Shown: one piece after another, positions 52,476 through 52,515 of the stretch
How the letters are laid out: each line of letters opens with the position of its first letter
Numbering within the stretch: position 1 is the stretch's first letter
Source of the DNA: Escherichia coli
GTDB lineage: Bacteria; Pseudomonadota; Gammaproteobacteria; Enterobacterales; Enterobacteriaceae
Length of the DNA: 64,000 nt
Direction: 5' to 3' (one strand)
Assembly (NCBI RefSeq): GCF_044324875.1
Contig: NZ_CP172185.1
Notes under the pieces: generated by a model
Database searches by the model: none
Seen by the model: the letters and a program-made list of their open reading frames with translations, nothing else
What the model was told of the DNA's origin: nothing
Translations under genes and position numbers: made by a program

Positions 52476-52515
52476 AATGAATAATCATCCATATAAATTG
52501 AATTTTAATTCATTG
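52476..52515. promoter_or_regulatory. Tandem ARG boxes (ArgR operator) overlapping the argI promoter
   Basis: aatgaataatcatccata and aaattgaattttaattcattg resemble the TGAAT-n-ATTCA ARG box consensus, 25-65 bp upstream of argI. Confidence 0.5.

Follow-up and report, generated by a model that had tools for sequence, protein, structure and literature searches.

Identification of tandem ARG boxes upstream of argI

In this Escherichia coli genome, two imperfect palindromes follow each other closely in the AT-rich DNA ahead of an ornithine carbamoyltransferase gene. Is this site the operator through which ArgR would repress argI, or could it be a chance feature of AT-rich DNA, a conserved coding sequence or the target of another regulator? 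We addressed this question in a 64,000-nucleotide stretch of contig NZ_CP172185.1, referred to here as the window. The intergenic region between rraB and argI measures 161 bp and contains both ARG boxes. Read directly, the sequence runs from TTAGAC through TTGCAA, ATGAATAATCATCCATA, TAA, ATTGAATTTTAATTCATT and GAGGCGTTAGCCACAGGAGGGATCT to the ATG of argI, and includes the following elements:

52476-52493, unstranded: ARG box 1, AATGAATAATCATCCATA, with a consensus promoter-distal half-site TGAAT and a degenerate proximal half-site ATCCA
52494-52496, unstranded: 3-bp spacer TAA, giving a centre-to-centre phasing of 21 bp, or two helical turns
52497-52514, unstranded: ARG box 2, ATTGAATTTTAATTCATT, a near-perfect palindrome
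52530-52534, plus strand: Shine-Dalgarno sequence GGAGG of argI, read directly, 5 nt ahead of the ATG
52540-53544, plus strand: argI, ornithine carbamoyltransferase, 334 aa, assigned from the open reading frame and NCBIfam NF009213

Relative to the argI ATG at 52540, box 1 starts 64 nt and box 2 ends 25 nt upstream, which bears out the first-pass annotation in placing the sites 25-65 bp ahead of the start codon. The coordinates it had given, 52476-52515, were correct at the start and ran one base beyond box 2 at the end. Its description of two 18-bp palindromic sites holds for box 2, in which 14 of 18 positions are self-complementary (half-sites TGAAT/TGAAT), and is slightly generous for box 1, which has 12 of 18 such positions (half-sites TGAAT/TGGAT) and only a half-consensus. 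Compared with the symmetrised consensus WNTGAATWWWWATTCANW, box 1 carries two mismatches and box 2 none; compared with the published ARG-box consensus TNTGAATWWWWATTCANW (PMC4865122, PMC5291005), box 2 carries a single mismatch, at position 1. A search for inverted and direct repeats picked up the similarity between the two boxes as a 16-nt inverted repeat of 75% identity. The same search returned an 11-nt direct repeat at 52388/52408, near the rraB start. An Rfam scan of 52300-52650 identified no RNA element; its sole match, to a vertebrate lncRNA model, scored 11.6 bits against a gathering score of 55 and is a chance hit.

The regulated gene and its neighbourhood

The product of the downstream gene scored 752.6 bits against NF009213 (cutoff 559) and 466 against TIGR00658 (cutoff 281). 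It is identical to K-12 ArgI at 330 of 334 positions (99%), as opposed to 87% identity to ArgF. Genes are arranged in the order valS, yjgN, yjgM and rraB (divergent), followed by argI, yjgL, tabA, bdcR, bdcA, yjgH and pyrLBI. The OTCase family match, the 99% versus 87% identity and the rraB-argI-yjgL synteny therefore identify the gene as argI, the orthologue of K-12 argI. Ornithine carbamoyltransferase catalyses the sixth step of arginine biosynthesis. The argR gene lies outside the 64-kb window, at a distance of about 1.1 Mb in K-12, and is expected in any E. coli.

In all the non-K-12 E. coli genomes that we inspected (loci L001 and L013-L016), RefSeq (PGAP) annotates the rraB-argI locus gene as "argF". 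Judging from synteny and the 99% versus 87% identity, which make the gene an argI orthologue, this label is a naming inconsistency and not biology. On the far side of argI, the convergent yjgL (53602-55269, minus strand) is a 555-aa open reading frame in low-GC DNA (~38%). This uncharacterised gene varies in length: the K-12 copy encodes 604 aa (1815 nt), that of strain CFSAN061771 550 aa.

Motif scores of the tandem boxes against chance

The test position-weight matrix (PWM) was symmetrised and built from ten boxes of the argECBH, argA, argD, carAB and argR operators; argI and argF did not contribute to it. We fetched the K-12 control regions of carAB, argF, artJ, artP, argA, argG, argR, argD and argECBH, and the ARG boxes of seven operators were found verbatim in K-12 DNA, phased at 21 bp or, in argR, at 20 bp. 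The published consensus alone re-derived exactly those box pairs in 7/7 operators.

The ArgR PWM scan that the first-pass annotation had proposed, with low scores at both sites as the sign against its reading, was strongly positive. Among 63,983 window positions, box 2 ranked first with 17.9 bits and box 1 second with 15.8 bits, scores that are clearly not low and that lie within or above the leave-one-out range of the training boxes (4.1-19.1 bits). Scored as a tandem at 21-bp phasing, the pair reached 33.7 bits, with the runner-up in the window at 20.5; at 20-bp phasing, its score dropped to 11.1. A larger PWM of 16 boxes from eight operators gave a tandem score of 34.0, with box 2 at 19.3 bits.

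Chance AT-rich near-palindromes, or an AT-rich promoter core without specific repressor binding, might in principle produce such sites. The region is indeed AT-rich (38.5% GC) and holds a -10 hexamer, and single consensus-like 18-mers are not rare, with 22 found in the window against 15.7 expected at up to three mismatches from WNTGAATWWWWATTCANW. Even a single site of at least 15.8 bits was present in 47 of 300 dinucleotide shuffles of the window. What chance did not supply is the phased pair: the tandem maximum was 23.5 in these 300 shuffles and 25.1 in 100 shuffles of 64 kb with AT-rich intergenic composition, and neither set ever reached 33.7. Box 2 is the only 0-mismatch match to WNTGAATWWWWATTCANW in the window, and box 1 is one of two 2-mismatch matches. 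The sequence moreover equals the K-12 argI operator, and its palindromic half-sites are conserved in nine other genera or species in which the equally AT-rich leader is not. We therefore regard chance or mere AT-richness as an exceedingly improbable account of the boxes.

Conservation of the boxes across genera

To survey conservation, we scanned a species-representative genome collection with a degenerate DNA pattern coding for FLKLLDFT, which yielded 120 loci. By tblastn, about 110 of these contained an OTCase, and upstream sequence sufficient for scoring was available at 106. Bacteroidota and Clostridia loci, which make up most of the set, gave no pair by the E. coli PWM; the informative loci were those of nine Enterobacterales and some Vibrionaceae. 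The nine Enterobacterales orthologues retrieved came from E. albertii, two Citrobacter, three Enterobacter, Klebsiella, Superficieibacter and Acerihabitans, with ArgI identities of 80-96%. All nine (9/9) kept the tandem pair at 21-bp phasing, located 25-32 bp from the start codon and scoring 30.8-37.1 bits, far above all else in each locus. Among the loci listed, pairs of 20-27 bits were also found in 4 of 8 Vibrionaceae and Aeromonas OTCase loci.

In the alignment of ten Enterobacterales, invariant columns were distributed along the control region as follows:

61 nt upstream: 15/61
-35 hexamer: 5/6
Box 1: 10/18
Spacer: 3/3
Box 2: 14/18
25-nt leader: 2/25

Read from the alignment, this column pattern is a classical phylogenetic footprint that tracks the dyad symmetry of the boxes.

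Conservation and natural variation within E. coli

Of 5426 complete E. coli genomes, 5425 carry the 161-bp intergenic region. Among 5431 E. coli records, 4530 match the 44-bp segment spanning the -35 hexamer through box 2 at 100% identity, another 893 show one or two base changes, and the remaining eight show more.

A separate alignment compared K-12 argF with five further argI alleles, among them that of K-12 MG1655 and an outlier of 88.8% identity. The segments TTGCAAATGAATAA, CATATA and TGAATTTTAATTCA were invariant across the aligned argI alleles and K-12 argF. The same held in the aligned E. coli alleles and argF for the TGAATA half of box 1 and for CATATAAA in the -10 area, which is also nearly invariant across genera. 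Variation among the aligned alleles lay in the degenerate (proximal) half of box 1 and in the flanks.

Natural box 1 variants, aligned to 52476-52493, occur in L013 (strain 24A16CRGN010) and L015 (strain ACN002). One, AATGAATAATCATTCATA, is a step nearer the consensus, and the other, AATGAATAACCATACATA, has two changes within the degenerate half. Such variants could modulate the strength of repression. Lineage-specific positive selection on argI has been described in phylogroup B2 (PMC12341379).

A small open reading frame beginning in box 1

Conservation at the site might alternatively reflect an ArgL-like leader peptide, translated from the ATG within box 1 (52477-52479), instead of a protein-binding operator. 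K-12 argF offers a precedent: an annotated argL of 31 codons, described as a "putative translational regulatory protein", starts at an ATG inside ARG box 1, and a stop codon introduced into argL led to higher expression of the downstream gene (bioRxiv 10.1101/511675). The homologous ATG in the window opens a 15-codon reading frame, MNNHPYKLNFNSLRR, at 52477-52524 with the stop codon TAG at 52522-52524. This reading frame is in frame with argI and ends just ahead of its Shine-Dalgarno sequence.

In 6 of the 9 other Enterobacterales, however, ATTGCAT or ATTGAAT stands in place of the ATG and the ARG boxes are still there, so coding cannot account for the conservation. It is the dyad TGAAT-N8-ATTCA, and not a codon periodicity, that the conserved columns track. 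The small reading frame also differs in length and frame between argI and argF: the argF leader is 2 nt longer, so the ATG of box 1 falls in the other frame and opens the 31-codon argL, which overlaps argF. In addition, most of the window's reading frame lies upstream of the predicted start site of the argI promoter. We thus rejected coding as the source of conservation, an explanation that is scarcely credible when the ATG is not conserved and the boxes are.

A small reading frame and an operator are not mutually exclusive. That the ATG at 52477 opens a translated 15-codon uORF, a truncated counterpart of ArgL, appears quite unlikely; if true, its translation would depend on transcripts that begin ahead of the canonical promoter, and argI would be controlled at the translational level as well.

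Promoter overlap and proposed mechanism of repression

Reading the boxes as an ArgR operator, we examined how they are placed relative to the argI promoter. A strict sigma-70 and terminator scan of 51900-53700 did not call an argI promoter; the hexamers below come from a relaxed hexamer search.

52471-52476, plus strand: TTGCAA, likely -35 hexamer (4/6 match), whose last base is the first base of box 1
52492-52497, plus strand: TATAAA, likely -10 hexamer (5/6 match to TATAAT), after a 15-nt spacer
52494-52499: TAAATT, alternative -10 hexamer, at a 17-nt spacing from TTGCAA

The promoter assignment is likely and backed by conservation, and the exact hexamer pair is uncertain. The spacer of TTGCAA-15-TATAAA is unusually short. 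TATAAA covers the junction of the boxes, extending from the end of box 1 across the spacer to the first base of box 2. In either version, the hexamers lie under the boxes, and box 1 fills the interval between -35 and -10. Transcription is predicted to start at about 52503-52507, inside box 2.

This layout suggests a simple mechanism. When L-arginine is abundant, the arginine-loaded ArgR hexamer would bind both 18-bp ARG boxes cooperatively; with their centres 21 bp apart, the boxes would present the same helix face, and each would be contacted by two ArgR subunits, with bending of the DNA. Beginning on the final base of the -35 hexamer, the boxes would take in the promoter spacer and the -10 hexamer and extend over the start-site region. 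Because they cover the promoter in this way, bound ArgR would be expected to exclude RNA polymerase and shut off argI transcription. As arginine falls, ArgR would leave and the strong argI promoter would fire.

Published work on related operators is in line with this proposal. ChIP-exo finds the same two-box architecture genome-wide, in a 39-bp unit whose two boxes are occupied by four subunits and whose DNA is bent by 70-90 degrees, and ArgR generally represses through steric exclusion of RNA polymerase (PMC4381063). At carAB P2, RNA polymerase and ArgR cannot be bound at the same time (PMC6245113). In a fitted reporter model, the argI promoter exceeded all other arg promoters in capacity (Vmax 8217), and its fitted ArgR constant was the lowest (Kr 0.60, with argA = 1; PMC3658269, Table 1). 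This lowest Kr agrees with the top motif score of argI, argI and argF being the operators closest to the consensus.

We also considered whether the site might primarily serve another AT-tract regulator or nucleoid protein, such as Lrp, IHF or Fis, or the control of the divergent rraB. ArgR sites may overlap those of other regulators, as with Lrp at artP (PMC6640053), and the divergent rraB has its start codon 98 bp from box 1. The boxes nevertheless sit on the argI promoter hexamers, some 100 bp away from that start codon, and their match is specific to ArgR boxes trained on other arginine operators. Around K-12 argF, where the flanks have diverged and rraB is not adjacent, both boxes are retained. 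Nothing supports another regulator or rraB control, and we judge either to be extremely unlikely as the primary role of the site.

Comparison with known ArgR operators

The closest relative is the K-12 argI operator itself. Not a single base has changed in the 39-bp operator, the promoter hexamers, the leader or the Shine-Dalgarno sequence, the gene order of the locus is the same, and the control region differs from that of MG1655 at 1 of 161 bases (52451), outside the boxes. Other differences between the window strain and K-12 comprise four ArgI residues, a shorter yjgL and another island at leuX, none of them relevant to the operator. The K-12 argI operator, identical in sequence, is a classical ArgR target, for which arginine-dependent binding is established and a footprint has reportedly been published. 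The primary footprinting papers for argI are reportedly those of Charlier et al. 1992 and Tian et al. 1992 (J Mol Biol 226).

The paralogue argF, in the CP4-6 prophage region of K-12, shares the layout TTGCAA, box 1, TAA and box 2, and is identical in the box 2 core TGAATTTTAATTCA and in the distal half of box 1; the two operators differ in the proximal half of that box (TTACACATA versus TCATCCATA). Two imperfect 18-bp palindromes with 21-bp phasing and promoter overlap likewise characterise carAB P2, argECBH, argA, argD, artJ and artP, whereas the argR operator has a 2-bp spacer. The argI and argF operators are the closest to the consensus, with 2+0 mismatches versus 1+3 to 5+1 in the other canonical operators. 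Two 18-bp boxes, a 3-bp separation and promoter overlap form the canonical E. coli ArgR operator described by Charlier's laboratory (PMC6640053, PMC6245113).

Judged from its sequence, the site is an E. coli-type ArgR operator in motif, spacing, promoter overlap, regulated gene and orthologous conservation. The initial suggestion that it is consistent with ArgR repression is thus supported by the PWM scan, the identification of the gene as argI, the identity with K-12 and the canonical architecture, and none of the evidence speaks directly against it. We conclude that the site is almost certainly the ArgR operator of the E. coli argI promoter, with ArgR binding and steric exclusion taken over from established knowledge.

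Other features of the window

The second-best tandem ARG-like pair in the window, ATCAAATAAAAATGCATG-TAT-TTTGACTTTTAATTCAAA, lies at 58044-58082 in the yjgH-pyrL intergenic region, about 91-129 bp upstream of the pyrL ATG (58173). The 10-box PWM gave it 20.5 bits and the 16-box PWM 25.2; its 4+1 mismatches are comparable to those of the real artJ and artP operators. A tandem score of 20.5 was reached in 4 of 300 shuffles. We rejected the pair as a conserved ArgR site; it is not conserved in the three other genera in which pyrLBI follows argI. That it is a real, E. coli-specific ArgR site seems quite unlikely on this evidence; if true, arginine status would be coupled to the expression of aspartate carbamoyltransferase and hence to how carbamoyl phosphate is partitioned.

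Upstream of the argI -35 hexamer, a second conserved block (52413-52460; ATTGTCACACACC...TTGCCTCCACCTTT...AAAGATTT) is common to Enterobacterales and the K-12 argF paralogue. Its minus strand carries TGTGACAAT, an extended -10-like motif, and the block may be a candidate divergent promoter for rraB.

The window also contains a variable island of low GC (30-47%) at 12000-39445, which ends at the tRNA-Leu(CAA) gene leuX (39361-39445, minus strand) and lacks collinearity with the E. coli strain that served for annotation. Its features include:

19373-21106: AAA_21 ATPase
21103-23004: N6_Mtase/Methylase_S fusion, adjoining the ATPase
23085-26147: HsdR of a type I restriction-modification system
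26152-27306: HsdS of the same system
27303-28766 and 28763-30364: two HsdM of the same system
32340-33320: IS110-family transposase
33894-37409: SF1-helicase/PLD-nuclease protein, 1171 aa
38181-38960: HNH protein

Significance of the argI operator

The argI operator is already known and belongs to textbook knowledge, and finding it here is ordinary. Seeing it in another E. coli strain says nothing new about arginine regulation and is useful only as a sanity check. ArgR/ARG-box regulation counts this operator among its founding examples and among those closest to the consensus, and in one quantitative reporter study no other arg promoter was repressed as tightly as that of argI (PMC3658269).
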